64,000 nucleotides of DNA from Candidatus Nealsonbacteria bacterium (GCA_026396115.1 JAPLXL010000005.1:2967-66966); one strand, 5' to 3'. Positions 9,597-55,527 are shown, counted from the stretch's first letter. Made by a program: numbers and translations. Notes: generated by a model from the letters alone, not told the origin.

Positions 9597-10115
9597 ATGG
9601 CCAGAAAGAAATTGGTAAAAAAAGTCGTTATTGGCGGAACTTTTGATATTTTGCACAGGGGACACGAGGCATTATTAAAAAGGACTTTTAGTTTGGGGGA
9701 AACAACTATCGGATTAACTTCAAACAAAATGGCTGAAAAAATTAAAAGAAGAAGGGTTGGAAATTTTCGAAGCAGAAAAAAAGAATTGGAAAAATTTATA
9801 AAAGAATGGTTGCTGGGCAAATATAAAATAAAGAAAATTGAAGACAAATTCGGCCCCACTTTAAAAGAAGATTTTGATTATATTGTGGTTTCTCCGGAAA
9901 CTTACAAAACGGCCTTGCTCATCAACAAAAAACGCCGGGAAATAAAGAAAAAACCGATAAAAATTGTTAAAATAAAGTTTGTTTTGGGAGAAAACGGAAA
10001 ACCCATCAGCGCCACTCAAATAATAAAAGGCAAAATAGATAAACAGGGAAAATTAATTACCGAGTCACGCTTGCGGGACGAAGGTGAAGAAGAGAACGAA
10101 GTTCTCTTCGCCTAA
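9597..10115 (+). CDS. Cytidylyltransferase-family nucleotidyltransferase (archaeal-type PPAT-like)
   Basis: VVIGGTFDILHRGHEALL (HxGH). The start was moved to MARKK at 9597. The last ~18 aa and the stop lie inside a repeat element. Confidence 0.7.
   Translation: MARKKLVKKVVIGGTFDILHRGHEALLKRTFSLGETTIGLTSNKMAEKIKRRRVGNFRSRKKELEKFIKEWLLGKYKIKKIEDKFGPTLKEDFDYIVVSPETYKTALLINKKRREIKKKPIKIVKIKFVLGENGKPISATQIIKGKIDKQGKLITESRLRDEGEEENEVLFA
10059..10112 (+). repeat. Hairpin repeat family copy (A) forming the C-terminus of the 9597 CDS
   Basis: accgagtcacgcttgcgggacgaaggtgaagaagagaacgaagttctcttcgcc, translated as TESRLRDEGEEENEVLFA*. Confidence 0.85.
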
Positions 10116-10194
10116 AAATTGTGCCTTTTCTTTTTGAAAATGGTAAAATAGTAAACAAAGGGTCGATAATAAATTTTAATTTTTAAGTAAATAT

Positions 10195-10956
10195 ATGTGC
10201 AACCTAAAAGAAGAAGTTAAAAATATATTTGTCGTGATATTGGGATTATTTTTAATTGCCCTGATTATTTCTACGGCAATTGATATTAAAAATAAATTAG
10301 AAGAAACGGAAAATACAATTACAGTTTCAGAAACCGGAACCGTTTATATTAAGCCAGATTTGGCTTTGATAAACTTCTCCATAGTTACCGAAGCTGAAAC
10401 GGTAGCCGAAGCCATGGGCAAAAATACCGAGAAAATGAATGCCGTAATTAATTTTGTGAAAGAACAGGGTATAGAGGATAAAGATTTAAAAACCACAAGT
10501 TTTGATATTTATCCTCGTTACGAATGGTATGATAAGACCCAAAATTATCCTTCCGGGGAAAGAGTATTGGTGGGGTATGAAGTAAGACAGTCGCTTCAAA
10601 CAAAAATCAGAGATATGGAAAAAATCGGTGAGATTATTGAAGGTGGAACCTCGGCCGGAGCCAATGAGGTCAGCGATTTACAATTTACCGTTGATAATCA
10701 AGATGAATTTAAAAAACAAGCGAGAGAAGAAGCAATTACCAAGGCTAAGGCTAAGGCAGAAGAATTAGCCAAACAGTTAGGAGTGAACTTAGTGAGAATC
10801 AGTAATTTCAGTGAAAGCAGCATTTTGCCTTACTTTTATTCAGCAAAAGAATCGGCTATGGGGCTGGGCGGAGCGGAAACTGTCCCTCTTCCTGAAATTG
10901 AAACCGGAGAAAATAAAATAGAGGTGACAGTAAGCATCACTTATGAAATTAATTAA
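10195..10956 (+). CDS. SIMPL/DUF541 domain protein
   Basis: N-terminal TM, then ITVSETGTVYIKPDLALINFSIVTEA and the C-terminal GENKIEVTVSITYEI pattern typical of DUF541. Confidence 0.8.
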   Translation: MCNLKEEVKNIFVVILGLFLIALIISTAIDIKNKLEETENTITVSETGTVYIKPDLALINFSIVTEAETVAEAMGKNTEKMNAVINFVKEQGIEDKDLKTTSFDIYPRYEWYDKTQNYPSGERVLVGYEVRQSLQTKIRDMEKIGEIIEGGTSAGANEVSDLQFTVDNQDEFKKQAREEAITKAKAKAEELAKQLGVNLVRISNFSESSILPYFYSAKESAMGLGGAETVPLPEIETGENKIEVTVSITYEIN

Positions 10957-11272
10957 AAACGAAGAGAGAAAGATAGTTTGGACGGAGCATTCAAAAATGA
11001 AATTAAAGCAATACCGATTTTCAGAAAAAAGAGTTTTAAGAATTTTTCGCCAACCGGATAGAACAGAAGAGGGGATAGCCGAAGGAACAATTGCGGTAAT
11101 GCAGATTACAGGTACCAAGAGAAATTCTACCGAAGCCTGGATGATGTATGTAATAATGAAAAGACCCAAGGGAATTAAAATAATTTCTGCCTGGAGGTAT
11201 CCCGGAAGAACGCCGAAAGGCGAAAGGCCGATTATTCCGGAGGATACTCTTAAAGAATTAGGTTTAATTTAA
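10943..11272 (+). CDS. Hypothetical protein
   Basis: 109-aa ORF overlapping the upstream stop by 14 nt. No secure motif. Confidence 0.45.
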   Translation: MKLIKNEERKIVWTEHSKMKLKQYRFSEKRVLRIFRQPDRTEEGIAEGTIAVMQITGTKRNSTEAWMMYVIMKRPKGIKIISAWRYPGRTPKGERPIIPEDTLKELGLI

Positions 11273-11280
11273 ATATAATT

Positions 11281-11628
11281 ATGAAATATTCGCCAATCGT
11301 CGGTTGGATTCTATTGTTAGCGGGCATCGGCATTATTGGTTGGACACTGATTAATTCTTATAATATTTTCACTGCCAAAGCCGTGTTGCCCGAATTTTTT
11401 GAAGCACCGAAAGAAGAAGTTGTAACCAAAAAAGAAGGCGGCCAGGACATTCAGGTCCAGATGGAGCAGATGATAGGCGAGCAACTGAAAGGAATTTTGC
11501 CTGTTGATTTTATAACAAAACTTTTAAATTTAGTCGTCCGGTCAATACTGGCTTTTATTTTAATTTTCGGCGGCAGCCAAATTTCCGGCCTGGGCATAAA
11601 ATTGATTAAAAACCGAGTCCTGCAGTAA
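11281..11628 (+). CDS. Hypothetical membrane protein
   Basis: Two hydrophobic helices. The stop codon lies inside a repeat element. Confidence 0.5.
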   Translation: MKYSPIVGWILLLAGIGIIGWTLINSYNIFTAKAVLPEFFEAPKEEVVTKKEGGQDIQVQMEQMIGEQLKGILPVDFITKLLNLVVRSILAFILIFGGSQISGLGIKLIKNRVLQ

Positions 11629-11666
11629 CGGGACGAAGGTGGAAAAGAGGATAAAATCCTCTTTGA
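11612..11666 (+). repeat. Hairpin repeat family copy (A variant) bridging two genes
   Basis: accgagtcctgcagtaacgggacgaaggtggaaaagaggataaaatcctctttgac, immediately followed by ttATG (11670). Confidence 0.8.
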
Positions 11667-11669
11667 CTT

Positions 11670-12068: not shown

Positions 12069-12070
12069 TA

Positions 12071-12173
12071 ACCGAGCTTTCGCGCAGCGAAAGCGAATTC
12101 GAAGAACATTCGTTCTTCTCTACCCTTCGTTGCGACTCGGATAGGTGAAGAAGAAAACGAAGTTCTCTTTGAC
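12071..12173. repeat. ~100-nt composite multi-hairpin repeat module
   Basis: accgagctttcgcgcagcgaaagcgaattcgaagaacattcgttcttctctacccttcgttgcgactcggataggtgaagaagaaaacgaagttctctttgac. Near-identical modules lie at 18904 and 21922. Confidence 0.85.
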
Positions 12174-12175
12174 TT

Positions 12176-14770
12176 ATGGCAGATAAATTTAATTTTAATC
12201 TAAAAACAACAGCGATTTATCAGGCAGTAAAATGGGCAAAGAATCCTGTTTTTAAATTGGCAAAATCTTTAAGAAAGCTATTTTTGTTTTTATTTGTTTT
12301 AGTTTTTTTAATATTTATTTATGGGTTTTTAACCGATGCTATCAGTAAAAACGCCCAATCTTTAACCTTAGGATTATCAATAATTTTTCTTACCTTATTT
12401 TTAATTTTTCGGCTAATAGAATCTTTTTTTAATTCAAAAGTTAAAAACCCAAAATTAAACATACAAATTACCGAACTTGTTTCCAATTTAGAAAAGTTCA
12501 ATCTGGCAGATTTTTTAAGTTTTGAAGTTGCCAAAGCAGTTTCAGATTCTATAAAATTTTGCAAAAAAAGGAAAATTGCTGAAATCAGCTCAACTCTGCT
12601 TTTTTACTTTCTTATTTCCAATAATCAAAATTTAAATTTTATATTTTCTCGAGCCCTTTTAAGCGTTAAAGAAATTAAGAAATTTCTTGAAAACTATTTT
12701 AAAACCATAAGCTCCGAAGCCCAGCGAGAGAAGAGGACGAAGTCCTCTTCGAGCATGGTTTATTCGGAAGATTTTCAGTATTCAATTTTTGAATCTCTAA
12801 AAGTAGCCGAAAAAAAGAATCATTTAAGAATTGAAGCGGGAGACATAATTACCGGTCTTGCCAAACATGATTTAATTTTTAAAAAAATTTTAATTGATAA
12901 TAATCTGAAAGTTCAAGATATTGAAAATTTAAGCTGGTGGCTGGAAGATCTGGAAGAAAAAATAAAAGAAAGTAAAAAGTTCTGGGAATGGAAAAACTTA
13001 ATAAAAAGAGGTTCTTTAGGAAAAGAATGGACGGCCGGCTACACTCTTACCTTAGACCGGTTTTCAATTGATTTATCCGAGGTACTAAGGAAAAGAGGAT
13101 TCCCGGAAATTATCGGCCATCAAAAAGAAATTAGTGCCGTGGAAAGGATTTTATCCAGAAGAGAAATAAACAATGTTTTGATAGTTGGCGAAGCGGGCAG
13201 CGGCAGAAAAAGTATGGTTCATGCTTTGGCTAAAAAAAGCGTTTTGGGAGAAAGTTCAGCCGAAGTAAATTATAAAAGAGTTGTTCAATTGGACCTGACA
13301 AACCTTTTAGCCCAGATTTCATCTTTCGAAAAGGTAGAAGTAACTTTGGACAATATCTTTAGAGAAGTGATTTTGGCTGGCAACGTTATTTTGGTTATAG
13401 ACGAGTTTCACAATTTTATTAGCGGCGGCATCAGACCCGGGGTAATAGATATTTCCGGGGTTCTCGCTCCTTATTTGCCATATCCTACTTTTCAGATTGT
13501 AGCCATTACCACTTTTGAAGGTCTTCACAAAAATATTGAACTAAATCCTTCTATTTTATCTCTGTTTGAAAAAGTTGAAGTTGCTGAAGTTTCTGAAAGA
13601 GAGACATTAATGCTTTTGCAAAACCTGAGTTTAATATTGGAACAAAAATACAAAAAATTCGTTTCTTACCAATCCCTCAGAGATATTATTGTTTATTGTT
13701 CAAAGTATTTGCCGGCAATTCCTTTTCCCGAAAAAGCAATGGATTTGCTTGATGAGGTAATGGTTTACCTTAACCAAACCATTAAAGACAAAGTACTTTT
13801 ACCAAAACATATTGCTTATATTATTTCAGAGAAAACTCAAATTCCGATTGGAGAAATAGAAGAAAAAGAAAGACAGGTTTTGCTTAATTTGGAAAATTTA
13901 ATTCATGAGAGAATCATCAATCAGCAGGAAGCTGTTAAAGAGGTTTCCGCCGCCCTAAGAAGGGCCAGGGCAGAGGTTACCACAAGATCTGGCCCCATGG
14001 GAACTTTTTTGTTTTTGGGGCCAACCGGCGTTGGTAAAACCGAGACTTCCAAAGCTCTTGCCGAGATATACTTTGGTTCCGAAGATAGAATGATAAGGTT
14101 AGATATGTCAGAATTTCAAAGCGCTGCGGATATTCCTCATTTACTCGGAGCTCCGGGAGAAGAAGGACTTTTAACCACTGAGGTCAGAAAAAGACCGTTC
14201 TCTTTGATACTTTTAGATGAAATAGAAAAAGCCCATCCCAATGTCTTAAATTTATTTTTGCAAATACTGGACGAAGGACACGTAACGGACGGACTCGGCA
14301 GAAAAGTTGATTTTAAAAATTCGATAATCATTGCTACTTCTAATGCCGGTTATCAAATAATTTTGAAGGCCTTAAAAGAAAAAACCGAATGGTTTAAAGT
14401 TAAACAAAAACTTTTGGACCGTCTTTTTGAAGAAGGGATTTTCAGGCCGGAATTTATCAATCGATTTGATGCAATGGTGGTTTTCAAACCTTTAAGTAAA
14501 GAAAATCTTTTAGATATAGCCGATTTGATGCTCAAAAAATTAAAGAAAAACCTGAAAGAAAAAGAGATTGAGTTTGTTATCACCGAACCTCTCAAAGAAA
14601 GAATAGTTGAATTGGGTTATGACCCGACCTTCGGCGCAAGGCAGATGAGAAGAGTTATTCAAGACAAAATTGAAAATGTTTTAGCTTCTGCGCTTTTGTC
14701 CGGCGAAATCAAAAGGGGGTATAAAGTAGAAATAGATTCTGAAGATTTTAGATTAAAAATAATTCAATAA
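12176..14770 (+). CDS. ClpA/B/C-family double-AAA+ ATPase with N-terminal TM helices
   Basis: D1: IGHQKEISAVERIL..GEAGSGRKS (atypical Walker A) and VILVIDEFHNF. D2: GPTGVGKTE, LILLDEIEKAHP, GARQMRRVIQ. Hydrophobic aa ~35-80. Confidence 0.85.
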   Translation: MADKFNFNLKTTAIYQAVKWAKNPVFKLAKSLRKLFLFLFVLVFLIFIYGFLTDAISKNAQSLTLGLSIIFLTLFLIFRLIESFFNSKVKNPKLNIQITELVSNLEKFNLADFLSFEVAKAVSDSIKFCKKRKIAEISSTLLFYFLISNNQNLNFIFSRALLSVKEIKKFLENYFKTISSEAQREKRTKSSSSMVYSEDFQYSIFESLKVAEKKNHLRIEAGDIITGLAKHDLIFKKILIDNNLKVQDIENLSWWLEDLEEKIKESKKFWEWKNLIKRGSLGKEWTAGYTLTLDRFSIDLSEVLRKRGFPEIIGHQKEISAVERILSRREINNVLIVGEAGSGRKSMVHALAKKSVLGESSAEVNYKRVVQLDLTNLLAQISSFEKVEVTLDNIFREVILAGNVILVIDEFHNFISGGIRPGVIDISGVLAPYLPYPTFQIVAITTFEGLHKNIELNPSILSLFEKVEVAEVSERETLMLLQNLSLILEQKYKKFVSYQSLRDIIVYCSKYLPAIPFPEKAMDLLDEVMVYLNQTIKDKVLLPKHIAYIISEKTQIPIGEIEEKERQVLLNLENLIHERIINQQEAVKEVSAALRRARAEVTTRSGPMGTFLFLGPTGVGKTETSKALAEIYFGSEDRMIRLDMSEFQSAADIPHLLGAPGEEGLLTTEVRKRPFSLILLDEIEKAHPNVLNLFLQILDEGHVTDGLGRKVDFKNSIIIATSNAGYQIILKALKEKTEWFKVKQKLLDRLFEEGIFRPEFINRFDAMVVFKPLSKENLLDIADLMLKKLKKNLKEKEIEFVITEPLKERIVELGYDPTFGARQMRRVIQDKIENVLASALLSGEIKRGYKVEIDSEDFRLKIIQ
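12711..12754 (+). repeat. Hairpin repeat family copy (A-like) in-frame inside the ClpC-like CDS
   Basis: gctccgaagcccagcgagagaagaggacgaagtcctcttcgagc, translated as SSEAQREKRTKSSSSM. Confidence 0.7.
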
Positions 14771-15449: not shown

Positions 15450-16349
15450 ATGGTTCATATTCCCGTATTGCAAAAAGAGGTTCTCCAGTATCTTGAGCCA
15501 AAGCCGAATGAAAATTTTATTGATTGTACCATAGGAAAAGGAGGTCATGCCTTAGCTATCTTGGAAAAAAATGGTCCAAATGGAAAAGTATTAGGAATCG
15601 ATCAAGACCAGGAAATAATCCAATGTTTAAAAACCCGAGCCGCAGCGAAGGGTGAAGAAGAACGATTGATTCTGGTTTGTGATAATTTTGCTAACTTAGA
15701 GGAAATCGTTAAAAAACAAAATTTTAAAAAAATATCCGGAATTTTATTTGATTTGGGAATGTCAAGCTGGCATTTAGAAGAGTCGGGTCGGGGATTCAGT
15801 TTTTTAAGGAATGAACCATTAGACATGAGATACGATTTAAGAAATCCTTTGACAGCCGAAAAGATAATAAACTTTTGGTCAGAGCCGGATATAGAAAAAA
15901 TTTTAAAAGAATTTGGAGAAGAAAATTTTTCGGAAAAAATTGCCAAAACCATTATTAAAGAAAGAAAATTCGGCTCGATTAAAACAACTTTTCAATTAGT
16001 AAGAATCATTAAAAAAGCAGTTCCTTTAAGATATCAAGAGCAAAGATTACATTGTGCGACAAGAACATTTCAGGCAATAAGAATTGCGGTAAACGAAGAG
16101 TTAGAGAATTTGAGAAAAGTTCTTCCCCAGGCAGTAGAAATTTTGCCAGCCGAGGGAAAACTGATAGTTATTTCTTTTCATTCTTTGGAAGATAGAATTG
16201 TTAAAAATTTTTTTCGGGAAAAAGCCAGAGAAAATATTTTAAAAATAATAACCAAAAAACCGGTCAGTCCCGACTTAAAAGAAATTAAAATTAATACTCG
16301 GTCTCGGTCCGGTAAGCTGAGAACGGCAGTAAAAATATGTCTCAAATAA
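15450..16349 (+). CDS. rsmH: 16S rRNA (cytosine1402-N4)-methyltransferase RsmH
   Basis: HIPVL..EVL..L, DCTIGKGGHA, DLGMSS, ISFHSLEDRIVK. Confidence 0.95.
   Translation: MVHIPVLQKEVLQYLEPKPNENFIDCTIGKGGHALAILEKNGPNGKVLGIDQDQEIIQCLKTRAAAKGEEERLILVCDNFANLEEIVKKQNFKKISGILFDLGMSSWHLEESGRGFSFLRNEPLDMRYDLRNPLTAEKIINFWSEPDIEKILKEFGEENFSEKIAKTIIKERKFGSIKTTFQLVRIIKKAVPLRYQEQRLHCATRTFQAIRIAVNEELENLRKVLPQAVEILPAEGKLIVISFHSLEDRIVKNFFREKARENILKIITKKPVSPDLKEIKINTRSRSGKLRTAVKICLK
15633..15665 (+). repeat. Hairpin repeat family copy (A, 3' arm degenerate) in-frame inside rsmH
   Basis: acccgagccgcagcgaagggtgaagaagaacga, translated as TRAAAKGEEER. Confidence 0.65.
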
Positions 16350-16687: not shown

Positions 16688-18373
16688 ATGCTTCGTTGGA
16701 AAATCAATTTCATTTTAGTATTCTTGTTTCTTTTAGGAATGGTCATTTTGGGCCGGCTTTTTTATATTCAAGTCGTTAAGGCCGACTTTTACAAAGCTTT
16801 GGCTCAAGGATTATATAGTATTGATAAACAAATTATTGGAGAAAGAGGAGAGATTTTTTTTAAAAACGGGGAAGCTTTAGCCATAAACATGGATTGGTCC
16901 TTGGTTTTTTCCTCACCAATAGAAGTTAAAGAAAAAGAGATTGCCGCCGAAAAATTAGCCGAAATTCTTTCTTTGGGCGAAGAGAATAAATCCTCTTCTT
17001 CCCCCTTCTCTACGGCTCAGGTAGCTAAAGATTTTATTTTGGAAAAATTAGAAAAAAACAATTTATATGAACCCATTAAAAAAAGAATAACTGATGAGGA
17101 AATTCAAAAAATAAAAGAACTAAACCTAAAAGGAATTTATCTGGACAGGGAAAAGGGAAGATACTATCCCCAAGGAACCTTTGCTTCCCAGTTAATCGGT
17201 TTTGTGGACGCCGACCGGCAAGGACAATATGGCATAGAAGGTTATGACGATGAGATTTTGCGGGGTAAAAAAGACCAACGAGGCAAAGATATTTTTTTAA
17301 CTATTGATTACTCCATTCAATTCAGAGCCGAAAAACTTTTAGAACAGGCAAAAGAAAATTTGGAGATTGAGGGCGGAGAAATTATAGTTATGAATCCTGA
17401 TTCCGGAGAAATTTTAGCCTTAGCGAATTTTCCGAACTTTAATCCCAATCAATATTCAGCGGTTTCTGATTTTGAAATTTTTGAAAATGGGGCGACCCAA
17501 AAAATTTTTGAGCCGGGTTCTATTTTCAAACCCATAACTATGGCTGCTGCTTTGAACGAGGAAAAAATCACTCCTCAAACCACTTATCTGGATAAAGGAA
17601 TATTGATGATAGGCGGCTGGCCAATTTCTAACTACGATAACAGAATTCATGGAGAACAAACTATGACTAATGTTTTAGAAAAATCAATTAATACCGGAGC
17701 AGTTTTTGTTGAAGAAAAGCTCGGGCATAATTCCTTTTTGAGGTACTTGGATAAATTCGGTTTTTTTAAACTGACCGGAATCGATCTCCAGGAAGTTTAT
17801 TCTGAAAATAGGGAGTTTAAAAAAGGATATGAAATAAATTTTGTCACGGCCAGTTTTGGCCAGGGAATAGAAATGACGCCAATCCAGTTAATCAGAGCTT
17901 ATAGCGTCATTGCTAATGGTGGAAAACTGGTAAAACCTTATCTGGTTAAGAAAATTATAAATGGCGAGGAGGTTTTGGGTGGCGAAGAGGATAAATCCTC
18001 TTCTTCACCCTTCGCTGCGACTCGGGTAATAGAAGACGATTTGGTAATTTCTCAAAAAACCGCCTCTCAATTAACAGCTATGCTGGTCAGCGTAGTTGAA
18101 AATGGTCCCTATACAAAGGGGGCTAGAATCCCTGGCTATTGGGTTGCAGGTAAAACAGGTACTGCCCAGGTACCAGAAAAAGGAACATATTCATCCGACA
18201 AAACCTGGCAATCGTTTGTAGGATTTGTCCCGGCTTTTAATCCTGAATTTGTAGTTTTAGTAAAACTTGATAATCCGAAGACGAAAACTGCTGAATATTC
18301 GGCAGTTCCTATTTTCCAGGATTTGGCAAAATATATCGTTGATTATTATCAAATACCGCCGGACCATGAATAA
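16688..18373 (+). CDS. ftsI: Penicillin-binding protein 2/FtsI-type transpeptidase
   Basis: N-terminal TM, dimerisation domain, SIFKP (SxxK), SIN (SxN), KTGTA (KTG). Confidence 0.9.
   Translation: MLRWKINFILVFLFLLGMVILGRLFYIQVVKADFYKALAQGLYSIDKQIIGERGEIFFKNGEALAINMDWSLVFSSPIEVKEKEIAAEKLAEILSLGEENKSSSSPFSTAQVAKDFILEKLEKNNLYEPIKKRITDEEIQKIKELNLKGIYLDREKGRYYPQGTFASQLIGFVDADRQGQYGIEGYDDEILRGKKDQRGKDIFLTIDYSIQFRAEKLLEQAKENLEIEGGEIIVMNPDSGEILALANFPNFNPNQYSAVSDFEIFENGATQKIFEPGSIFKPITMAAALNEEKITPQTTYLDKGILMIGGWPISNYDNRIHGEQTMTNVLEKSINTGAVFVEEKLGHNSFLRYLDKFGFFKLTGIDLQEVYSENREFKKGYEINFVTASFGQGIEMTPIQLIRAYSVIANGGKLVKPYLVKKIINGEEVLGGEEDKSSSSPFAATRVIEDDLVISQKTASQLTAMLVSVVENGPYTKGARIPGYWVAGKTGTAQVPEKGTYSSDKTWQSFVGFVPAFNPEFVVLVKLDNPKTKTAEYSAVPIFQDLAKYIVDYYQIPPDHE
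16975..17022 (-). repeat. Hairpin repeat family copy (B, 48 nt) in-frame inside ftsI
   Basis: gggcgaagagaataaatcctcttcttcccccttctctacggctcaggt, translated as GEENKSSSSPFSTAQV. Confidence 0.85.
17980..18027 (-). repeat. Hairpin repeat family copy (B, 48 nt) in-frame inside ftsI
   Basis: tggcgaagaggataaatcctcttcttcacccttcgctgcgactcgggt, translated as GEEDKSSSSPFAATRV. Confidence 0.85.
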
Positions 18374-18920
18374 AATTAAATTTTTTTTAAGAAAGCCAAA
18401 GGTGGTGATTGTTATTGGGGAGAGAAAAAAAATGGTAAAAGAAGCCATTTTTCAGGTTTTGAAGCAATATTCTAAAATTGACAAAGATGTCTTGATTCTT
18501 GAAACAGAAGAAAAAAAAATTAATAAATTTGCTTTTTATTTAAAAAACTCTAAATTGCCGATTTTAGTAATAGCTGGCATTAATGATATCTATTTAGTTA
18601 AAAATCTGCCTGTTAACACTCATTTTGTTTTAAATTACGACGATGAAAAACTAAAAGAAGAAATTAATAACCTTGATAATTTTAAAACCATGAAATTTGG
18701 CTTTAAAGAAGAAAATGATATTTTTGTCTCCGATCTCAAAGAAAACGGCGGGACAAATTTCAAGGTAAATTATAATGGAAAAAGTGTGCCATTTTGGCTG
18801 AATGGACTTCTTGACCAAGAGCAAATTTACGCCATCCTGGCCGCAATCAGCGTTGGCACAATTCTTGGCTTAAACCTGGTGGAAATTTCCCAATCCTTCA
18901 AATACCGAGCTTTCGCGTAG
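18366..18920 (+). CDS. Short, degenerate Mur-ligase-like protein (MurF-like central region, no P-loop)
   Basis: KVVIVIGERKKM sits where GTNGKT is expected. NFKVNYNGKSVPFWLNGLLDQEQIYAILAAISVG resembles the MurF central domain. Only 184 aa, and the stop lies inside a repeat. Confidence 0.4.
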   Translation: MNKIKFFLRKPKVVIVIGERKKMVKEAIFQVLKQYSKIDKDVLILETEEKKINKFAFYLKNSKLPILVIAGINDIYLVKNLPVNTHFVLNYDDEKLKEEINNLDNFKTMKFGFKEENDIFVSDLKENGGTNFKVNYNGKSVPFWLNGLLDQEQIYAILAAISVGTILGLNLVEISQSFKYRAFA

Positions 18921-19005
18921 CGAAAGCGAAAGTAAGAAAGAGGGCGAAGAAAAGCGTTTCTTCTTCCGTCTCGTCTTCGACTCGACGAACGAAGCTCTCT
19001 TCGCC
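18904..19005. repeat. ~100-nt composite multi-hairpin repeat module
   Basis: accgagctttcgcgtagcgaaagcgaaagtaagaaagagggcgaagaaaagcgtttcttcttccgtctcgtcttcgactcgacgaacgaagctctcttcgcc. Confidence 0.8.
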
Positions 19006-19052
19006 TATTTTTGTTTATTTTTTGATTTTGTGATAAATTAAAACTTGCCACT

Positions 19053-19128: not shown

Positions 19129-19165
19129 TTTCTAACAGAGTTAGCCCCTGTTAGAACAAAAATCT

Positions 19166-20023: not shown

Positions 20024-20098
20024 TTGTTTACTTTAAAAAGAAAATTTTTCATATTATTTGAGCAAAGATTCCTAAGAATTTTTGTTTTTTTGTTGTTC

Positions 20099-20127: not shown

Positions 20128-20168
20128 ATAGGCAGTACATAAAATCTTTTTTAGGAAAGGAGGACGCA

Positions 20169-21908: not shown

Positions 21909-21921
21909 AAAAAAATCACCA

Positions 21922-22023
21922 ACCGAGCTTTCACGCAGTGAGGGCGAATCGAAGAACATTCGTTCTTCTCTACCCTTCGCTGCGACTCGGGTAGGTGAAG
22001 AAGAGGGCGAAACCCTCTTCGCC
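21922..22023. repeat. ~100-nt composite multi-hairpin repeat module in the 5' UTR of the ATPase gene
   Basis: accgagctttcacgcagtgagggcgaatcgaagaacattcgttcttctctacccttcgctgcgactcgggtaggtgaagaagagggcgaaaccctcttcgcc. Confidence 0.85.
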
Positions 22024-22037
22024 TAAATATACTGATT

Positions 22038-24833
22038 ATGAATTCATTCCATTCCAAATCCATTGAGAAGACCTTGGAAGAACTTTCTTCTTATCCGGAA
22101 GGTTTGACTTCAGAGGAAGTGAAAAACCGTTGGCAAAAATTCGGTTTTAATGAAATACCCGAGAAAAGGGCCTTGCACCCGGCTTTTATTTTTTTGAAAC
22201 AGTTCCATTCTTGGCTGATATACATACTTATTGGAGCAGCTCTTTTTTCCTTTTGGACCAGGCACATGTTCGATGTTTATATAATTTCGGCCGTTCTTTT
22301 GCTTAATGCTCTCATGGGCTTTATTCAAGAATCCAAGGCAGAGAAAGCCATTAGGGCTTTAAAGAAGATGGTTGTGCCTTTTGCTAAAGTCATCAGAGAA
22401 GGGGAGTTATTAAAAATTCCGGCCAAAGAATTGGTTCAAGGCGATATTATTTTATTGGGAGAAGGAGATAGAATTCCGGCTGACGCCAGATTGTCGGAAT
22501 TAAAGAATTTTAGGACAATGGAAGCGGCCTTAACAGGTGAATCGGTTCCGGTAGATAAAAACCTTGAAGAGCTGCCCAAAAAAACTCCTTTGGCTGACCA
22601 AAAAAATATGATTTGGCTGGGAACATTTGTTACAGCTGGTCAAGCAAAGGCAATAGTTGTTGCCACCGGACCCAAAACCGCTTTGGGACAAATCGCTGAA
22701 AGTCTTGAAAAAATTGAAACTCCGAAAACTCATTTCAAAATAAAAACCGATTTGCTGGCAAAACAAATGGCCGGAATTGCTTTTGGTTGTGTTTCGGCGC
22801 TTTTATTGGTTGCGTTATTTATTGGCCATTTTGAATTTAAAGATGCATTTCGTTTTGCGGTTGCCGCTCTTGTTTCGGCAATTCCCGAGGGACTGCCAAT
22901 AGTATTGGTCATTGTTCTGGCCATGGGAGCTCACCGGATGGCAAAAAGAAATGCGATTGTCAGAAACCTGCAGGCTACAGAAACTCTTGGCGTGGCAAAT
23001 ATTATTGCCGTGGATAAAACCGGAACTATTACTCAAAACACAATGGACGCAGAAAAAATAATTTTATTAAATCAAGAAGAAATTACGGTTTCCGGAGGCG
23101 GCTGGAAGCCAAAAGGCGAATTTATTCAAAAAGAAAAAGTTTTCTTTCCTTTGGAAAATCCTCAATTAAGAAAGCTTTTACATATTGCCTGTATTTGCAA
23201 CAATGCCAGATTGCTCAAAGAAAACGGCAAAAAGGAAAATTACAGAATCATTGGCGACCCGACAGAGGCGGCCTTGGTTGTCCTGGCAGAAAAGGCCGGG
23301 CTTAAAAAAGAAGTTTTGCTGGAAAAAGAAAAAATAATTGATGATTTGCCATTTAATCCGGAATTAAAATATGGAGCTTCGCTTATCGAGCTTCCGCAGG
23401 AAGCGAAAATTAAGAAGAGGATAAATTCCTCTTCGCCTGCTATTTTAACTAAAGATACGACAGAAAAAGAAATTTATGTAGTTGGGGCGCCGGAAGCTAT
23501 TTTAGAAATTTCTTCCTCAGGATTTGGAGAAAAAGAGAAGAAATTAGCGCTAAAAGAAAAAAAAGAAATTTTAAATAAAGTAGAAGGTTTAGCAAAAAAT
23601 GGTTTAAGGGTTATCGGGTTGGCTTATAAAACCGTTCCTTTTGAAACGGAAAAATTGACCCCAGACCTAATTAAAAACCTCGTTTTTGTGGGAGCGGTAG
23701 GAATGGAAGATCCCCCGAGGCCCGAAGTTAAAGAAGCTATTGCCAAAACAAAAACAGCCGGAATCAGAGTGATTATGAAAACCGGCGACCATAAAGAAAC
23801 TGCCATAGCTATTGCCAGAGAAATCGGTTTAGTCAAAAATGAAAAAGAGAACAATTATCCTTTGGCTTTAACCGAAAAAGAATTAGAAAAGTTGACTGAG
23901 AAAGAGTTTAACGAAGCAGTAAAGCATGTTTCAATTTTTGCCAGATTAACTCCGGCAATGAAATTAAAAATTTTAGAAAGCTTGCAAAAACAAGGATATA
24001 TTGTGGCCATGACCGGTGACGGAGTCAATGACGCCCCGGCTTTAAAAAAAGCTGATATTGGCATTGCTATGGGACAAATCGGTACCGATGTTGCCAGAGA
24101 AAGCAGTTCCATGGTTTTGGCCGATGATAATTTTACTTCCATTGTCAATGCCATTGAAGAAGGAAGAACCGTTTTTACTAACGTTAAACAAGTCAGCCTG
24201 TTTTTAATTACCACCAATTTTGCTGAAATTGCCACCCTGGTAACTTCTTTAATCATCGGTGCTTATTTGTGGGGCCAAACCCTTTTGATTATTTTGCCGG
24301 CTACCATTATTTTTATGAATTTAGTAACCGATGGCTTTGCCGATGTTGCTTTGGCTTGCGAGCCCAGTCATGAAGATGTCTTGAAAAAACCGCCGAGAAA
24401 AAAAGAAGAAAATATTTTGTCCAAAGATATTTTCCCATTTTTAGTTTTAATGGTTATGATAATGACCGTTTTAACGATTTTTATTTTTAAAACCTTTTTA
24501 CTTCAGGATTCTTTGGAAAAAGCCAGGGCCGGTGCTTTTGCCGTCATGGCTATTACCCAGTTATTTAATGTTCTTAATATGAGGAGTCTCAACCAATCCA
24601 TTTTTAAGATAGGGTTCTTTTCTAACAAATTCATAGTGGGAGGTTTGACAGTTTCTATTATTTTAATAATAATAGCTCTTTTTGTCGGAGGTGTGGCGGA
24701 AAAATTTGGCTTTGAACCTCTTTCTCTTTCAGAATTTTTAATCATAATCTTGCTTTCCTCTCTGGTTTTGTGGGGCGGAGAACTCTATAAATATTGGCGT
24801 CGAAGGTCAACACGCTTTTTGTTGAAAAATTAG
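22038..24833 (+). CDS. Cation-transporting P-type ATPase (type II, Ca2+-ATPase-like)
   Basis: LTGESVPV, VDKTGTITQN, MKTGDH, MTGDGVNDAPALKKADIGIAMG, about 10 TM segments. Confidence 0.9.
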   Translation: MNSFHSKSIEKTLEELSSYPEGLTSEEVKNRWQKFGFNEIPEKRALHPAFIFLKQFHSWLIYILIGAALFSFWTRHMFDVYIISAVLLLNALMGFIQESKAEKAIRALKKMVVPFAKVIREGELLKIPAKELVQGDIILLGEGDRIPADARLSELKNFRTMEAALTGESVPVDKNLEELPKKTPLADQKNMIWLGTFVTAGQAKAIVVATGPKTALGQIAESLEKIETPKTHFKIKTDLLAKQMAGIAFGCVSALLLVALFIGHFEFKDAFRFAVAALVSAIPEGLPIVLVIVLAMGAHRMAKRNAIVRNLQATETLGVANIIAVDKTGTITQNTMDAEKIILLNQEEITVSGGGWKPKGEFIQKEKVFFPLENPQLRKLLHIACICNNARLLKENGKKENYRIIGDPTEAALVVLAEKAGLKKEVLLEKEKIIDDLPFNPELKYGASLIELPQEAKIKKRINSSSPAILTKDTTEKEIYVVGAPEAILEISSSGFGEKEKKLALKEKKEILNKVEGLAKNGLRVIGLAYKTVPFETEKLTPDLIKNLVFVGAVGMEDPPRPEVKEAIAKTKTAGIRVIMKTGDHKETAIAIAREIGLVKNEKENNYPLALTEKELEKLTEKEFNEAVKHVSIFARLTPAMKLKILESLQKQGYIVAMTGDGVNDAPALKKADIGIAMGQIGTDVARESSSMVLADDNFTSIVNAIEEGRTVFTNVKQVSLFLITTNFAEIATLVTSLIIGAYLWGQTLLIILPATIIFMNLVTDGFADVALACEPSHEDVLKKPPRKKEENILSKDIFPFLVLMVMIMTVLTIFIFKTFLLQDSLEKARAGAFAVMAITQLFNVLNMRSLNQSIFKIGFFSNKFIVGGLTVSIILIIIALFVGGVAEKFGFEPLSLSEFLIIILLSSLVLWGGELYKYWRRRSTRFLLKN
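23385..23437 (+). repeat. Hairpin repeat family copy (A) in-frame inside the P-type ATPase (cytoplasmic N-domain region)
   Basis: atcgagcttccgcaggaagcgaaaattaagaagaggataaattcctcttcgcc, translated as IELPQEAKIKKRINSSSPA. Confidence 0.8.
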
Positions 24834-28536: not shown

Positions 28537-29559
28537 ATGAATGATTTTCTTTTTGTCTTGATAATATTTTTGATTGTGGCGGCAGGCGTGGGAGCAATCT
28601 TTTTTTTATTGCGTAAATCAAGAACTGATGAAAAACAGAGTGGCGCTATAGAAGATTTAAAAATAAGATTAGCTGAAATGACAGGTATTTTAAAAGAGAT
28701 GAGCGACAGCCAAGATGGAACTTCAAGAGCAATGCAAGATCAAATGCATTCTTTTACCAAAGAAGCAACCCAGATAAGAGAAGATTTAAAACATGTTCAA
28801 GAAAGCGTAAAAGACGTTTCTTCTTTTCAGGAAATTTTCAAAGCGCCAAAACTCAGGGGGCAATGGGGTGAAGCGTCTTTAGAACACATTTTATCCCAGC
28901 ACTTTCCCTCAGAGCTTTACAAATTACAATATCTGTTTTCTTCGGGCGAACAGGTAGACGCTGTGTTATCGCTTCCTAATGCCAAAACCCTGCCGATTGA
29001 CGCTAAATTTCCCTCTGAAAACTTTACTAAAATGGTTGAAGCTTCGGGCGCTGAAAAGGATGCTTTCCGGAAAAAATTCATTGATGACATCAAAGGCCAT
29101 ATTGATAAAATCGCTGCAAAATATATAATACCTGCCGATGGAACCGTTGATTTCGCTTTAATGTATATTCCGGCCGAAGCCATTTATTACGAGATAGTTA
29201 ATAATATTGGCAAAGAATTTGATTTAACGGGTTACGCTATGTCAAAGAAAGTGGTTCTCACTTCTCCCAACACGATTTATTTAACCTTAAGAACAATCGA
29301 GCATTGGTTTAAAGATACCCAAATTTCCCGGCAAACGCAGGAAATTCTGAAAAGATTAAATAAGGTTTATCAGGACGCCGGAAAGTTAATGGATGATTTC
29401 AGAAAACTGGGTTCACATTTAAAAAATGCCGTTTCTTCTTATGACAGTTCGGAAAAACGTCTTGATATGTTTTCTGACAAGGTCGAAAGATTATTAGAGG
29501 TCAAAAAAACTAAAGTTTCTTCTTCCCCCTCGCTTCGCTCGGGAGGTCAAAGAAGTTAA
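28537..29559 (+). CDS. rmuC: DNA recombination protein RmuC
   Basis: N-terminal TM, coiled coil, KLRGQWGEASLEHIL and the nuclease-like C-terminal half. The last ~14 aa are repeat-derived. Confidence 0.85.
   Translation: MNDFLFVLIIFLIVAAGVGAIFFLLRKSRTDEKQSGAIEDLKIRLAEMTGILKEMSDSQDGTSRAMQDQMHSFTKEATQIREDLKHVQESVKDVSSFQEIFKAPKLRGQWGEASLEHILSQHFPSELYKLQYLFSSGEQVDAVLSLPNAKTLPIDAKFPSENFTKMVEASGAEKDAFRKKFIDDIKGHIDKIAAKYIIPADGTVDFALMYIPAEAIYYEIVNNIGKEFDLTGYAMSKKVVLTSPNTIYLTLRTIEHWFKDTQISRQTQEILKRLNKVYQDAGKLMDDFRKLGSHLKNAVSSYDSSEKRLDMFSDKVERLLEVKKTKVSSSPSLRSGGQRS
29515..29545 (-). repeat. Half copy of the hairpin repeat family (B) forming the RmuC C-terminus
   Basis: gtttcttcttccccctcgcttcgctcgggag, which matches unit 4 of the 3423 array. 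Translated as VSSSPSLRSGG. Confidence 0.7.
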
Positions 29560-31960: not shown

Positions 31961-32010
31961 GTCGAAGAGATAAATCTCTTCTTCATCTTTGCTTCCTTCG
32001 GAAGCTCGAT
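31961..32010 (-). repeat. Hairpin repeat family copy (B) upstream of dnaB
   Basis: gtcgaagagataaatctcttcttcatctttgcttccttcggaagctcgat. Confidence 0.8.
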
Positions 32011-32015
32011 AATTA

Positions 32016-51461: not shown

Positions 51462-52259
51462 ATGTTGACTCTCTCGGGTTTAAAAAAAGAATTAAAAGCC
51501 AAAGCCAGTCCCAAAAAGGCGAAGATCCTGCAAAGATTCTTTAAAACAGGTCCCGGAGAATACGGCTATGGTGATGTTTTTTTAGGCGTGGTGGTTCCGG
51601 AAACAAGGAAAGTAGCCAAGAAATACAGCACTCTTAAAGTGGCAGATGCGGTAAAATTATTGCATTCCAAAATCCATGAAGAAAGATTAGCTGCTCTTTT
51701 AATTATGGTTGATAAATTTCAAGCTCCCGAGCAACAGCGAAGTCGAAAAAGGATTTCATCCTCTTTCTTACCTTCGCTTCCTTCGAAAGCTCGGTGGGGG
51801 AAGAAGAAAGTTTACTTTCTTCGCCCCGGAAACGAACAAGAAATAATTTATAAAACATATTTGAAAAACACAAAATACATAAATAATTGGGATTTGGTGG
51901 ATTTGTCGGCTGAAAAAATAGTAGGGGATTATCTTTTTGATAAACCGAAAGAAATTCTTTACAAATTAGCTAAATCAAAAAGCGTTTGGGAAAGAAGAAT
52001 AGCCATTATAGCAACTTTTAACTTTATTAAAAACAATAAGTTTGAAGAAACTTTTAAAATTTCTAAAATTCTTTTAAATGATGAACATGATTTAATCCAT
52101 AAAGCGGTTGGTTGGATGTTAAGAGAGGTTGGCAAGAGAGATATTAAAACAGAAAAAGATTTTCTTGATAAATATTCTAAAAAAATGGCTAGAACTACGT
52201 TTCGCTATGCCATTGAGAGATTTCCGGAAAAAAATATGTTAATTAAAAAGAAAAAATAA
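51462..52259 (+). CDS. DNA alkylation repair protein (AlkD-like HEAT-repeat family) carrying a ~33-aa repeat-derived insertion
   Basis: KAKILQRFFKTGPGEYGYGDVFLGV, NNWDLVD, HDLIHKAVGWMLRE. Confidence 0.75.
   Translation: MLTLSGLKKELKAKASPKKAKILQRFFKTGPGEYGYGDVFLGVVVPETRKVAKKYSTLKVADAVKLLHSKIHEERLAALLIMVDKFQAPEQQRSRKRISSSFLPSLPSKARWGKKKVYFLRPGNEQEIIYKTYLKNTKYINNWDLVDLSAEKIVGDYLFDKPKEILYKLAKSKSVWERRIAIIATFNFIKNNKFEETFKISKILLNDEHDLIHKAVGWMLREVGKRDIKTEKDFLDKYSKKMARTTFRYAIERFPEKNMLIKKKK
51725..51825. repeat. ~100-nt composite hairpin repeat module inserted in-frame in the AlkD-like CDS
   Basis: ctcccgagcaacagcgaagtcgaaaaaggatttcatcctctttcttaccttcgcttccttcgaaagctcggtgggggaagaagaaagtttactttcttcgcc, translated as APEQQRSRKRISSSFLPSLPSKARWGKKKVYFLRPG. 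Confidence 0.8.
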
Positions 52260-53598: not shown

Positions 53599-53748
53599 CT
53601 CCTGAAAGAATTAATTGTTGATTGATAAATATACAATTAAATATGCTAAATGTCAATCGGGTTTTTAATTTGAGTTATTTTTAGCTATAATAAAAGAAAC
53701 TAAGACCAAAGGAAAAATGGTGTCAACTCTGATTCTTTAAAGCAAAAT

Positions 53749-54264
53749 ATGAAAAAAACTATTAAGAAAATTTTAAAAGTAAAACCATTCCAGGAGACAT
53801 TAAATAGTAGTTACTGCGGTCCGGCATCGCTAAAAATAGTATTAGATTATTACGGAATCAAGAAAACAGAAAAAGAATTAGCTAAAATGACTGGCTGGAA
53901 TAAGGATTTGGGAGTAGACGATAAAGGGATCAAAAAAGCAGCGGAAGCGTTGGGTTTTAAGGTAAAAATAAAAAATAATAGCAATTATTCAGATATCCAA
54001 AAATGGCTGGACAAAAGAGTTCCGGTTATTGTTGATTGGTTTACAAGGGGCAGAAATGATTGTACTGATTCTGATATTCCGGACGGCCATTCTTCTGTTG
54101 TGGCAGGACTTGATAATAAATTTATTTATCTTCAAGATCCTGAAATAGGGAAGATAAGAAAATTAAACAGGGAAGACTTTATGACAGTTTGGTTTGATTT
54201 CAGGGGTAAATATATAAAACCTAATGGATTAGTCATCAGACAGATTATCGCGATATATAAATAA
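53749..54264 (+). CDS. C39-like cysteine peptidase domain protein
   Basis: SYCGPASLKIVLDYYG (catalytic Cys context), DGHSSVV, YLQDP. Confidence 0.6.
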   Translation: MKKTIKKILKVKPFQETLNSSYCGPASLKIVLDYYGIKKTEKELAKMTGWNKDLGVDDKGIKKAAEALGFKVKIKNNSNYSDIQKWLDKRVPVIVDWFTRGRNDCTDSDIPDGHSSVVAGLDNKFIYLQDPEIGKIRKLNREDFMTVWFDFRGKYIKPNGLVIRQIIAIYK

Positions 54265-54273
54265 TATATATTT

Positions 54274-55527
54274 ATGGAAGAAGAATATCAACAAAAATCT
54301 GAGAAAATTTTCTCCGTTTCGGAGTTTATAACGCTTCTGAATATAGGACTTAATAAGTCCCAAGTTAAAATGATTGGAGAAGTAAGCGAGGCAAAGATCA
54401 ATTCGTCTGGCCATGTTTATTTTGTGTTAAAAGATAAAAAAGATGGAAGCGTAATAAATTGTGCAATCTGGAAACATAGATATGCGATATATGGAATCAA
54501 GTTGAAGGAGGGAATGGAGATTATTGTTTTTGGCCACCCCAATATACATAAAACTTATGGATTTTCTTTTATAGTCGAAACGGTTGAGTTGGCCGGGGAG
54601 GGAGCTTTAAAAAAAGAATACGAGAGATTGAAAAAGAAACTGACAGAAGAAGGGCTTTTTGCCGAGGAAAGAAAAAAACTGATTCCAAAATATTGCCGCA
54701 AGGTGGGTCTGATTACCTCAAAACAGGGTGCGGCTCTGGGGGATTTTTTAAGCAATTTGGGAAAATACGGATTTCAGATAAAAATGATTGATTCACGCGT
54801 TGAGGGGCAGGAAGCAGTTACCGAACTTTTGCGCTCAATAAAGACATTCAGAAATCAGGATATAGATGTTTTAGCCATAATCCGCGGGGGAGGATCGGCT
54901 GAATCTTTGGAAGTATTCAATAATGAATTGCTGGTCAGGGAGGTGGCAAAATTTCCGGTTCCGGTAATCGCGGGCATTGGACACGACAAAGACGAGCCGT
55001 TGGTTGCCTTGGCGGCCGACGCTTCGGAATCCACTCCTACTGCCGTTGCCAACCTGCTTAATGAATCATGGGAAGAAGCCCTCCTGCGTTTGGAGAGATA
55101 TGAGAGGGGAATTTTGGGATACTTTGAGGAAATTTTTGAAAAATATAGAAACGCAGAGCGCTCATTAATGATTTCTTTTGGGAACTTTAAAAATGCTTTA
55201 TTAAATGTTAAAATGAATTTAAGAAATTCGGTTAATAAATCTCTTTCTGGATTTAAATCATTATTATCAAAAATTAATCAGCAGCTGGAACACGCTGAAA
55301 AAGTAGTTAATCTTAATAATCCGGTGCGGCAATTAATGCTCGGTTACAGTATTGCCAGATGTCATGGCAGAATAATTAGAACCGTGAAAAATACCAAAAT
55401 AGGGGACAATATAGACATTCAAGTAATTGATGGAAAAATTAATTCGGAGGCGAAGAGAATTTCATTCTCTTCTTCACCTTCGCCCCTCCTCCAAAAAAGG
55501 GGCTCGGTAAGTAAAAAATATAAGTAA
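54274..55527 (+). CDS. xseA: Exodeoxyribonuclease VII large subunit
   Basis: OB-fold N-terminus (VSEFITLLN...GEVSE...SGHVYFVLKD), RGGGS, GIGHD. The C-terminal ~25 aa are repeat-derived. Confidence 0.9.
   Translation: MEEEYQQKSEKIFSVSEFITLLNIGLNKSQVKMIGEVSEAKINSSGHVYFVLKDKKDGSVINCAIWKHRYAIYGIKLKEGMEIIVFGHPNIHKTYGFSFIVETVELAGEGALKKEYERLKKKLTEEGLFAEERKKLIPKYCRKVGLITSKQGAALGDFLSNLGKYGFQIKMIDSRVEGQEAVTELLRSIKTFRNQDIDVLAIIRGGGSAESLEVFNNELLVREVAKFPVPVIAGIGHDKDEPLVALAADASESTPTAVANLLNESWEEALLRLERYERGILGYFEEIFEKYRNAERSLMISFGNFKNALLNVKMNLRNSVNKSLSGFKSLLSKINQQLEHAEKVVNLNNPVRQLMLGYSIARCHGRIIRTVKNTKIGDNIDIQVIDGKINSEAKRISFSSSPSPLLQKRGSVSKKYK
55449..55508 (-). repeat. Hairpin repeat family copy (B) forming the XseA C-terminus
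   Basis: ggcgaagagaatttcattctcttcttcaccttcgcccctcctccaaaaaaggggctcggt, translated as EAKRISFSSSPSPLLQKRGSV. Confidence 0.8.

Follow-up and report, generated by a model that had tools for sequence, protein, structure and literature searches.

That small repeats can fuse in frame with genes, or extend their 3' ends, is already known. Rickettsia palindromic elements (RPE) lie in frame in many housekeeping genes of reduced genomes and are thought to be compatible with the fold of the host protein (Ogata et al. 2000, as summarised in PMC10969869). In Coxiella burnetii, QMITE1 and QMITE2 overlap gene 3' ends and supply C-terminal residues or the stop (Table 2 of PMC5896051); for instance, Dugway EnhC has a 33-aa C-terminal extension that comes from QMITE2 (PMC5896051). 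Other small repeats (ERIC, BOX/RUP, BRE) are found fused in frame internally, or extending the 3' or 5' ends of genes (Delihas 2011, PMC3184786, section 15). Repetitive extragenic palindromic (REP) sequences, which are extragenic by definition, carry a GTAG or CGTC tag and are mobilised by RAYT (PMC3733652, PMC3116915, PMC3184786). Here we describe a palindromic element of about 50 nt in a 64,000-nt stretch of DNA from a Candidatus Nealsonbacteria bacterium (GCA_026396115.1, JAPLXL010000005.1:2967-66966; hereafter the window), which is part of a metagenome-assembled genome (MAG). A first-pass annotation had noted that several open reading frames (ORFs) in the window end in copies of a repeat. 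Our analysis indicates that the window has very probably been colonised by short modular palindromic repeats, and that those landing at 3' ends replace or extend the native tails.

The element resembles RPE in being palindromic, in having no coding capacity of its own, in lying in frame in unrelated genes, and in occupying a small reduced genome; the segments it encodes also appear to be fold-compatible, falling here in predicted coil. The published descriptions of RPE (families 1-10) set it apart, however. It is presumably an unrelated sequence family, its host belongs to the Patescibacteria and not the Rickettsiales, its units are 48-57 nt as against ~100-150 bp, and it shows two-hairpin modules, composites, tandem arrays, strong presence/absence variation at strain level, and many copies at junctions and starts. 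Like the QMITEs it supplies C-terminal residues and stops but, unlike these (which have terminal inverted and direct repeats), it makes no consistent duplication and is far more often found as internal in-frame copies. Short imperfect palindromes, mosaics of alternating orientation, high copy number, compensatory stem changes and a possible single-strand hairpin substrate are features shared with REP, BIME and REPIN sequences (PMC3733652, PMC3116915, PMC3184786). The consensus of the present element (nCCCGAGC..AGCGAAGGnGAAGAAGAGGATTTAnTCCTCTTCGCC, from 20 aligned units) nevertheless lacks GTAG and CGTC, and ~40% of copies are inside ORFs. Whereas the ERIC, BOX/RUP and BRE cases are scattered through Proteobacteria and Firmicutes, in this single 64-kb window ~13 of the ~62 genes are affected.

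PARCELs are likewise coding sequences of dyad symmetry, readable both ways round, but they form 25-residue tandem domains in surface proteins of unknown function, and the present element is dispersed among housekeeping genes and intergenic sequence. Very short mobile repeats that get into the coding regions of compact genomes are also known from mitochondria, as double-hairpin elements (for the sponge hairpin elements see PMC2800124) and GC clusters; the likeness goes no further, these being organellar and presumably unrelated in sequence. Small size (45-60 nt), absence of coding capacity, multiple copies (~30 in 64 kb) and presence/absence between strains all recall the miniature inverted-repeat transposable elements, but there is no target duplication of fixed length, and neither a parent insertion sequence nor a transposase was found among the window ORFs and the annotated flanks in relatives. 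TIGR arrays (PMC12045711) were considered for an array of 48-nt period in the window and dismissed on their description, the units here being dispersed, near-identical and inside genes. A literature search of limited reach found no prior account of such elements in Patescibacteria or, more broadly, the candidate phyla radiation (CPR). Neither the family nor its occurrence in this phylum, its dense presence in essential genes or its docking next to start codons seems to have been described before.

A modular double-hairpin repeat family

The window has a G+C content of 36%, and its genes are tightly packed and nearly all on the plus strand. The best homologs of its XseA and PPAT proteins are all from Patescibacteria, Paceibacteria or Nealsonbacteria. 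For comparison we used syntenic DNA from four related populations (L001-L008), with identities taken from BLAST: a close relative represented by L001, L002/L003 and L007 (~92-97% nucleotide identity to the window), L008 (~89-96%), and L004-L006 (~83-88%).

Repeat finding and a hairpin scan brought out a palindrome, GAAGAG-loop-CTCTTC, that recurs between conserved flanks. For the core pattern, GAAGAAGAG-N8-9-CTCTTCGCC, there are seven matches in the window and none in 100 dinucleotide shuffles. Searching with a covariance model derived from 20 units gave ~30 full-length copies (E<1e-3), all within 0.9-32 kb and 51.7-56.9 kb of the window. Written in one orientation, the unit is ACC(C)GAG-[small variable hairpin]-CGAAGG(G)TGAA-GAAGAG-loop-CTCTTCGCC, and it folds as two hairpins: an outer ACC...GGT stem around the small variable hairpin, and the main GAAGAG/CTCTTC hairpin. 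Unit lengths fall into two classes (~47 and 53-60 nt), and the commonest insertion sizes are 48, 54 and 57 nt. Modules join freely into ~100-nt composites and tandem arrays (Table 1); composites have inverted flanks (ACCGAGC...GCTCGGT), whereas single units are two internal hairpins with unlike ends. Two composites are related to each other (12099-12174 and 21949-22024, 87% identity over 76 nt) and tandem units are near-identical (95-97%). These observations confirm that the modular double-hairpin family is real.

The structure is strongly conserved. Among 148 copies from 45 sources, 97.5% of cells are paired, and cells changed on both sides number 262 as against 68.6±13 in shuffles (0 of 500 reaching this value) and at most 22 in slid controls, in an alignment that was itself fitted to the model, which favours structure. 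Does this conservation reflect an RNA? Copies occur in both orientations, in at least four reading frames and in intergenic DNA. Because orientations relative to genes are about equal (~50/50) and exceptions of the G·U and A·C types are balanced, there is no strand-specific RNA signal, and a strand-specific RNA structure was ruled out. No Rfam 15 family matches the repeat, two tRNAs being the only features of the window to reach the gathering score. Element frames are stop-free in 70% of cases, against 47% for random segments of equal length.

Remodelled C-termini of five genes

The five tails quoted in the first-pass annotation all read as given there and are all repeat-derived: PPAT (...TESRLRDEGEEENEVLFA), RmuC (...KVSSSPSLRSGGQRS), XseA (...EAKRISFSSSPSPLLQKRGSVSKKYK), the gene at 11281 (...NRVLQ) and a Mur-like gene (...YRAFA), each followed by the stop. 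The accompanying claim that the stops lie inside the repeat holds for the 11281 gene (11626-11628) and the Mur-like gene (18918-18920); that of PPAT abuts the element, and those of RmuC and XseA are in the flank, read in a shifted frame. The proposal that insertion at 3' ends replaces or extends native termini is borne out by element-free alleles of XseA, the 11281 gene and the Mur-like gene.

A clean presence/absence pair is seen at the junction of the 11281 and 11670 genes. In L002 the upstream gene ends in ATTAAAAA followed by ATGATAG, that is, as IKLIKK and a stop with an ATGA overlap onto the next gene. In the window an insertion of 57 nt changes this end to IKLIKNRVLQ. The new stop, TAA, is in the loop of the element's small hairpin, and the native ATG of the following gene (11670) adjoins the element end. 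This copy folds as a double hairpin (z = -4.2).

The Mur-like gene was labelled as MurF-like by the first-pass annotation, and truncation of a MurF gene by the element was considered. This was ruled out: the gene is a naturally short one (~182 aa), similar to Mur_ligase_M and kept at 182-209 aa in L007 and L008. Its end is ...TTCAAATAA in L007, and ...TTCAAATA joined to CCGAGCTTTCGCGTAG in the window and L008; comparison of these junctions shows that the native stop codon was split (TA/A). The new stop, TAG, is supplied by a hairpin loop five codons on. A tRNA-Glu gene (19053-19128) follows the composite.

At the XseA 3' end the window has 103 nt (55451-55553) where L001, ~97% identical in nucleotide sequence, has 10 nt, and the tail changes from VKNIWQKKNQTQKI to AKRISFSSSPSPLLQKRGSVSKKYK. 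The L001 protein (P0001), 98% identical, is without the element; its tail WQKKNQTQKI overlaps the xseB start, whereas in the window the two genes stand apart and xseB (55554-55787) remains complete. As the first-pass annotation had proposed, we compared ortholog C-termini, and in both PPAT and XseA the orthologs end earlier than, or otherwise than, the window proteins: 60 XseA orthologs end ...DGKI(N/I)SEVKNI plus 1-10 residues, and the window protein ends ...SEAKRISFSSSPSPLLQKRGSVSKKYK. Native GTAAAAAATATA is present after the element and is also duplicated. The stop (55525-55527) is in flank read in a shifted frame and not in the element. Two orthologs of 63-69% identity, P0011 and P0021, have the same element, site and post-element tail (SVSKKYK in P0021), a pattern that points to gene-end exchange between lineages or to repeated loss. 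In the AlphaFold2 (AF2) model of XseA, residues 384-417 have a predicted local distance difference test score (pLDDT) <50, and the tail (aa 393-417) is predicted to be disordered.

PPAT, whose true start is probably the ATG at 9597, has its TAA stop immediately after the last element base. Some 60 orthologs end ...GKL(I/L) plus 0-9 residues, ~18 aa before the end of the window protein; the element-free relative L116 ends in GRLIKKTEDILQL, and the CTP_transf_like Pfam domain is complete at aa 162. L002 shares the tail TESRLRDEGEEENEVLFA with the window. Elsewhere PPAT proteins contain other pieces of the element: internally in P0139, in the tail in P0133 and P0122, and near the N-terminus in L002.

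RmuC has a copy that is decayed and gives no fold signal (z = +0.57). Two GAGGTCAAA repeats, spaced 46 nt, flank it; the DNA that follows is thereby shifted out of frame by +1, and the new stop (29557-29559) is in flanking DNA. The question of whether native stops can still be detected is answered here: the original frame still reads EVKEVKKLKKGE and its stop at 29543-29581, just before rplU, so that the predicted native tail EVKKLKKGE and its stop are intact downstream of the element. Other RmuC proteins are similar up to about aa 320-325, and the reconstructed tail resembles that of a 73%-identical fragment (P0414). The element tail is common to the window, L007 and L008. Predicted junction peptides of inserted segments include ...INSEAKRISFSSSPSPLLQK, GEEDKSSSSPFAATR and LITESRLRDEGEEENEVLFA.

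The following sequence of events very probably produces such ends. A copy landing in the last few codons of a gene, or in its stop codon, would lead translation into the stop-poor element; translation would then finish either within the small hairpin, at a stop in its loop, or beyond the element, where the displaced native sequence first offers a stop in the shifted frame, and the native tail would be replaced or extended by 4-25 hydrophilic, probably disordered residues. Copies are gained and lost between strains, and selection probably sorts them in a genome that leaves them hardly any room. With intergenic spacers so short and overlapping genes so common, the survivors are those at exact junctions or in frame in tolerant regions.

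Copies within genes, between genes and at start codons

The first-pass annotation understated the scale, since at least eight genes beyond the five tail cases have in-frame copies: SpoIIM (already noted), PBP (two copies), P-type ATPase, RlmN, an AlkD-like gene, a ClpB-like gene, RsmH and RecR. Insertions inside intact genes are all multiples of 3 and stop-free. The SpoIIM copy had been taken for the donation of an N-terminal segment. The element is indeed present, but it is an internal in-frame insertion and not a donated N-terminus, because the native start and first nine residues are kept; the copy is found in the window and L002 and not in L004. The window SpoIIM gene also lacks ~185 nt at 2384/2385 relative to L002 and L004, so that its 98-aa ORF stops soon after the deletion, with the C-terminal half readable in another frame; this could be either a pseudogene or an assembly error.

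At site 1 of the PBP (FtsI-like) gene the window and the more distant L004 have the element, and L007 and L008 are empty; site 2 is filled in the window and L008, and empty in L007 and L004. The P-type ATPase insertion is found in the window and L007 and not in L008 or L004. It overlaps, at aa 450-467, the sole long internal low-confidence coil (residues 455-474) of the AF2 model; as in XseA, the inserted segment sits in low-confidence coil. Against the solved homolog 6fz6_A the RlmN segment is extra sequence, facing a ~15-aa gap. In the AlkD-like protein the Pfam domain (DNA_alkylation) covers 248 aa for 213 profile positions, and the insertion is common to L001. Two further copies are partial. 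That of the ClpB-like gene is an insertion relative to L002 and L004, and in RsmH a 42-nt in-frame deletion between GAAGA repeats has removed part of a copy that is full in L002 and L007 and missing from L004. In RecR (30175-30240) there is a window-specific, GC-rich insertion of ~60 nt, TVSVLKKDYNPPTTLPSKGRAP, that is not called by the covariance model and may be a different or degenerate module.

Insertions at junctions and in intergenic DNA are free of the multiple-of-3 constraint and measure 46, 57, 70, 79, 93 (net), 106, ~120 and ~182 nt. Neither the composite at 12070 nor the tandem array at 3421-3621 occurs in L002 or L004, and the dnaB leader insertion is missing from L007. The TGT start that is overlapped by an element end is GTG (976) in the window and L002, and ATG in the element-free L004.

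Table 1. Copies of the palindromic element in the window, in order of position, and loci at which the element end stands next to a start codon. Scores in bits are from the covariance model.
Feature	Coordinates	Strand	Description
Acylphosphatase/TGT unit	921..978	-	Element end overlaps TGT start; covariance-model match
SpoIIM insertion	2139..2192	+	54 nt, aa 10-27, NRASEGSEGEEENGILFA; 65.3 bits
Intergenic unit	2820..2876	-	59.6 bits
Tandem array of four units	3421..3621	-	Intergenic; 48-nt period
greA-upstream composite (~100 nt)	6755..6848	-	Followed by 1 nt, then ATG 6850 in frame with GreA
PPAT unit (orientation A)	10058..10115	+	Last 18 codons; 56.6 bits
11281/11670 junction insertion	11613..11669	+	57 nt; clean presence/absence versus L002
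Composite of 106 nt	12070..12175	+	Between stop of 11670 gene (TAAT) and ClpB-like ATG
ClpB-like AAA+ remnant	12726..12750	+	Net 21 nt, in-frame hairpin remnant, REKRTKSSSS
RsmH half element	15633..15660	+	Main hairpin lost
PBP/FtsI-like site 1	16976..17023	-	48 nt, in frame, GEENKSSSSPFSTAQVA
PBP/FtsI-like site 2	17981..18027	-	In frame, GGEEDKSSSSPFAATRV
Mur-like gene composite (~100 nt)	18905..19005	+	Adds YRAFA and TAG 18918-18920
P-type ATPase upstream composite (~100 nt)	21921..22026	+	11 nt before start; segment not in L004
P-type ATPase insertion	23384..23437	+	54 nt, in frame, IELPQEAKIKKRINSSSP
RmuC decayed unit	29497..29542	-	54 bits
dnaB leader unit	31961..32011	-	Inside 79-nt insertion directly upstream of minus-strand dnaB start
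AlkD-like DNA_alkylation gene, composite (~100 nt)	51725..51825	+	About three modules in frame; covariance-model matches
XseA 3' end	55450..55553	-	Unit (55450-55510) plus duplicated and extra flank
RlmN insertion	56851..56897	+	In frame, SSSRATAKGEEENLFSS; 62 bits
Docking locus	L019 3726-4072
Docking locus	L045 1902-3606
Docking locus	L012 2295-3134
Docking loci	L013 1803-2951, 5820-7302
Docking loci	L040/L053
Docking locus	window 6755-6850

Is the element confined to this organism? An exact-pattern scan of species-representative genomes was made, and the two-hairpin model was then applied to the matches listed. Among these, the full element occurs in Nealsonbacteria (including the complete 639.5-kb genome CP179888.1), Paceibacter normanii, Parcubacteria CG1_02_39_15, a WWE3 MAG, MAG E14_metabat.bin.93 and several MAGs labelled Saccharibacteria. 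Seeds in other phyla lack the rest of the element, with the exception of a MAG labelled 'Candidatus Humimicrobiaceae' (L081) that has two full matches. The set gave 93 copies in other genomes, of which 54 are intergenic; the other 39 overlap ORFs of at least 120 codons, 26 internally, eight at the 3' end and five within the first 30 codons. The presence of 3'-end copies in these genomes indicates that C-terminal overlap is general in this group. The UvrA protein of CP179888.1 (L019 4773-7892, 1039 aa) has several element segments, for example ...SEGEEENKVLFA... and ...SSSPSPARAGS.... Phage carriage was also considered; nine seed matches were found in IMG/VR, none of them a full element. An element-rich locus of E14_metabat.bin.93 also contains a free-standing ORF (L030 5304-5960) that is LAGLIDADG-like by its GDGHL motif only.

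An unexpected regularity concerns gene starts. In 23 of 118 non-redundant copies the ...GCTCGGTW end is followed by exactly 1 nt and then ATG; other offsets occur 0-9 times. Sixteen of these 23 ATGs open ORFs of at least 80 aa, and in most there is an in-frame stop 3-18 nt upstream. Judged by N-terminal sequence only, the docked genes look like groES, groEL, map, murD and, in two genomes, an AI-2E transporter. For gtrA, the window has no element yet has the ATG, which is therefore native. After the ...GCTCGGTW end comes a conserved flank, NNTGAA, whose position +4 is a purine in 115 of the 118 copies; this flank could be either a target preference (TGAA/ATGAA) or five further element bases. 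Under either reading the element forms the entire 5' leader of the docked genes, which have no Shine-Dalgarno site nearby. Coupled termination and reinitiation by upstream ORFs reading through the docked copies was considered and not seen, there being just 0-44 open codons upstream.

It is conceivable, if quite improbable, that the element serves as a portable cassette for gene junctions, tolerated or exploited by Patescibacteria, with one end closing the upstream gene (tail plus stop) and the other docking 1 nt before native start codons as a whole leader in place of the Shine-Dalgarno site. If so, these organisms would have a mode of translation initiation that is element-dependent or independent of a Shine-Dalgarno site, and insertion would be sequence-specific, with a target of the TGAA/ATGAA type (TTCA-NN-WACCGAG in the other orientation). 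Such a target would recall the tetranucleotide targets of HUH single-strand transposases.

Several neighbouring features deserve mention. Two listed ORFs are spurious: 19045-19320, which overlaps the tRNA-Glu gene, and 3323-3640, which is a minus-strand read-through of the 48-nt tandem array. A segment of ~2 kb (20023-22023) with 45% G+C and three ORFs, including a CsgG-like one (21137-21829), is missing from L004; it ends in a composite element. A second repeat, AAAAAATCGCCAAGAAGGCGGTTTTTTGGTAGAATA (~40 nt each), is found at 35390, 42255, 44975, 46292, 47170, 51408, 57015 and 59512, and is frequent in that part of the window which has few copies of the palindromic element; it consists of a terminator-like GC hairpin with a T-run, directly followed by a -10-like TAGAAT. 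Finally, an 852-aa protein (37235-39793) has at least six tandem coding repeats of 153-156 nt (~51 aa), with Pfam matches to CarboxypepD_reg and an SdrD_B-like domain, and a sub-threshold Kelch-like match.

Origin of the insertions and their significance

Copies differ between strains that are otherwise 92-97% identical, with more than 15 polymorphic sites in the comparison of the window with L001-L008. Relatives also have copies that the window lacks: a second ATPase site and an internal site in the Mur-like gene (L008), a RecR site and a gtrA leader (L007), the PPAT 5' end (L002), and an insert of 31-32 aa in a class IV aminotransferase (L004, L007 and L008). This last insert (8247-8339 in L007, 17440-17543 in L004) corresponds to an empty site at 19421-19428 of the window that is inside a short purine-rich GAGGG/GGAGGG stretch, which suggests that it was precisely lost in the window lineage. 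The near-identical tandem units and the duplicated composite suggest that copies have arisen recently inside this genome. The alignments themselves show the insertions, exactly where they join the native DNA and which reading frames result. We infer that the tails are translated, that the host tolerates them, and that the element is selfish mobile DNA moved by an enzyme encoded outside the window.

Several caveats and contrary observations apply. Just two or three of the five stop codons are borne by the element, and C-terminal remodelling is one outcome of a broader process that includes internal in-frame, junction and 5'-leader insertions. That the element tails are translated is deduced from reading frames. 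No transposase or HUH nuclease was found in window ORFs or in the relatives' flanks, nor was a RAYT (Y1 HUH) gene present in the window or among the 8-20-kb stretches covered from other genomes. There is no consistent target-site duplication: four junctions have 0-2 nt and others have direct repeats of 5, 7-8, 9 or ~12 nt, and these inconsistent lengths rule out a duplication of fixed size. Insertions at identical sites occur in divergent orthologs (XseA of P0011 and P0021; PBP site 1 of L004) although closer strains are empty, a pattern that suggests recombination or exact loss no less than fresh transposition. The strong covariation and the fixed element end beside start codons leave room for a selected function. 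Microhomology of empty sites to the hairpin arm GGCGAAGAGGA was also tested as a possible targeting signal and rejected as a general rule (14 sites, mean 5.57 versus 5.91 for random window positions, P=0.94).

Could the insertions be old, with patchiness arising mainly from homologous recombination and from precise deletion between short direct repeats? This is possible but doubtful. It would account for the XseA insertion being shared by orthologs of 63-69% identity and missing from P0001, for the filling of PBP site 1 in the window and L004 with L007 and L008 empty, and for the aminotransferase insert of three relatives with its purine-rich empty site in the window; the loss of the RsmH hairpin by deletion between GAAGA repeats is an event of the required kind. 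It does not account well for tandem units of 95-97% identity and related composites at two unrelated sites, which imply recent copying, or for several insertions that are unique to the window among the four related strains.

We think it unlikely that the elements are first of all functional cis-modules, REP-like hairpins that stabilise mRNA ends, separate overlapping genes or set initiation, with coding overlap as a side effect, although mobility would be compatible with such a role. Both hairpins are strongly conserved by compensatory changes, the docking before ATG codons is recurrent, and two window-specific junction insertions end at the next ATG with a Shine-Dalgarno-like AAGGTG(G/A)A followed by the hairpin. 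On the other hand, orientations are about equal and give no strand-specific RNA signal, many copies are inside coding regions where a junction role is meaningless, old copies decay (that of RmuC, and that of RsmH, which is half deleted), and close strains thrive without individual copies.

The two remaining explanations are very improbable. One is that the tails are artefacts of mis-assembly, sequencing error or mis-called stops, with native C-termini complete upstream (the first-pass annotation had named the last two causes as fatal to its proposal); the MAG source and the suspicious 185-nt deletion in SpoIIM speak for it, but the tails are not assembly artefacts because the same ones recur in independent assemblies from other samples and pipelines (PPAT in L002/L003, RmuC in L007/L008, the Mur-like gene in L008, XseA in P0011/P0021), the junctions are clean, and the elements are canonical family members. 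Nor are the repeats at all likely to be native E/K/S-rich low-complexity linkers alike by convergence, for although the encoded peptides are hydrophilic and in predicted disordered regions, the similarity is at the DNA level, extends to non-coding copies, both orientations and at least four reading frames, and is matched by element-free alleles in strains >90% identical.

If, as we favour, the window has been colonised by a mobile repeat, there are consequences both for annotation and for the biology of the group. Extended ORFs, false 'hypothetical' ORFs such as the two noted above, and mis-set starts are a hazard wherever the element occurs. Genomes of Patescibacteria are usually called streamlined and repeat-poor, yet here a ~50-nt hairpin touches about one-fifth of the genes in 64 kb, among them the essential genes for PBP, RecR and RlmN, and UvrA in a relative. 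The element would then be a major, ongoing source of variation in protein tails and loops, and of rewiring at operon junctions, in ultra-small genomes. It would also provide a second independent system, beside Rickettsia, for the persistence of selfish palindromes in coding DNA, and its docking at start codons poses a testable question about translation initiation in the CPR.

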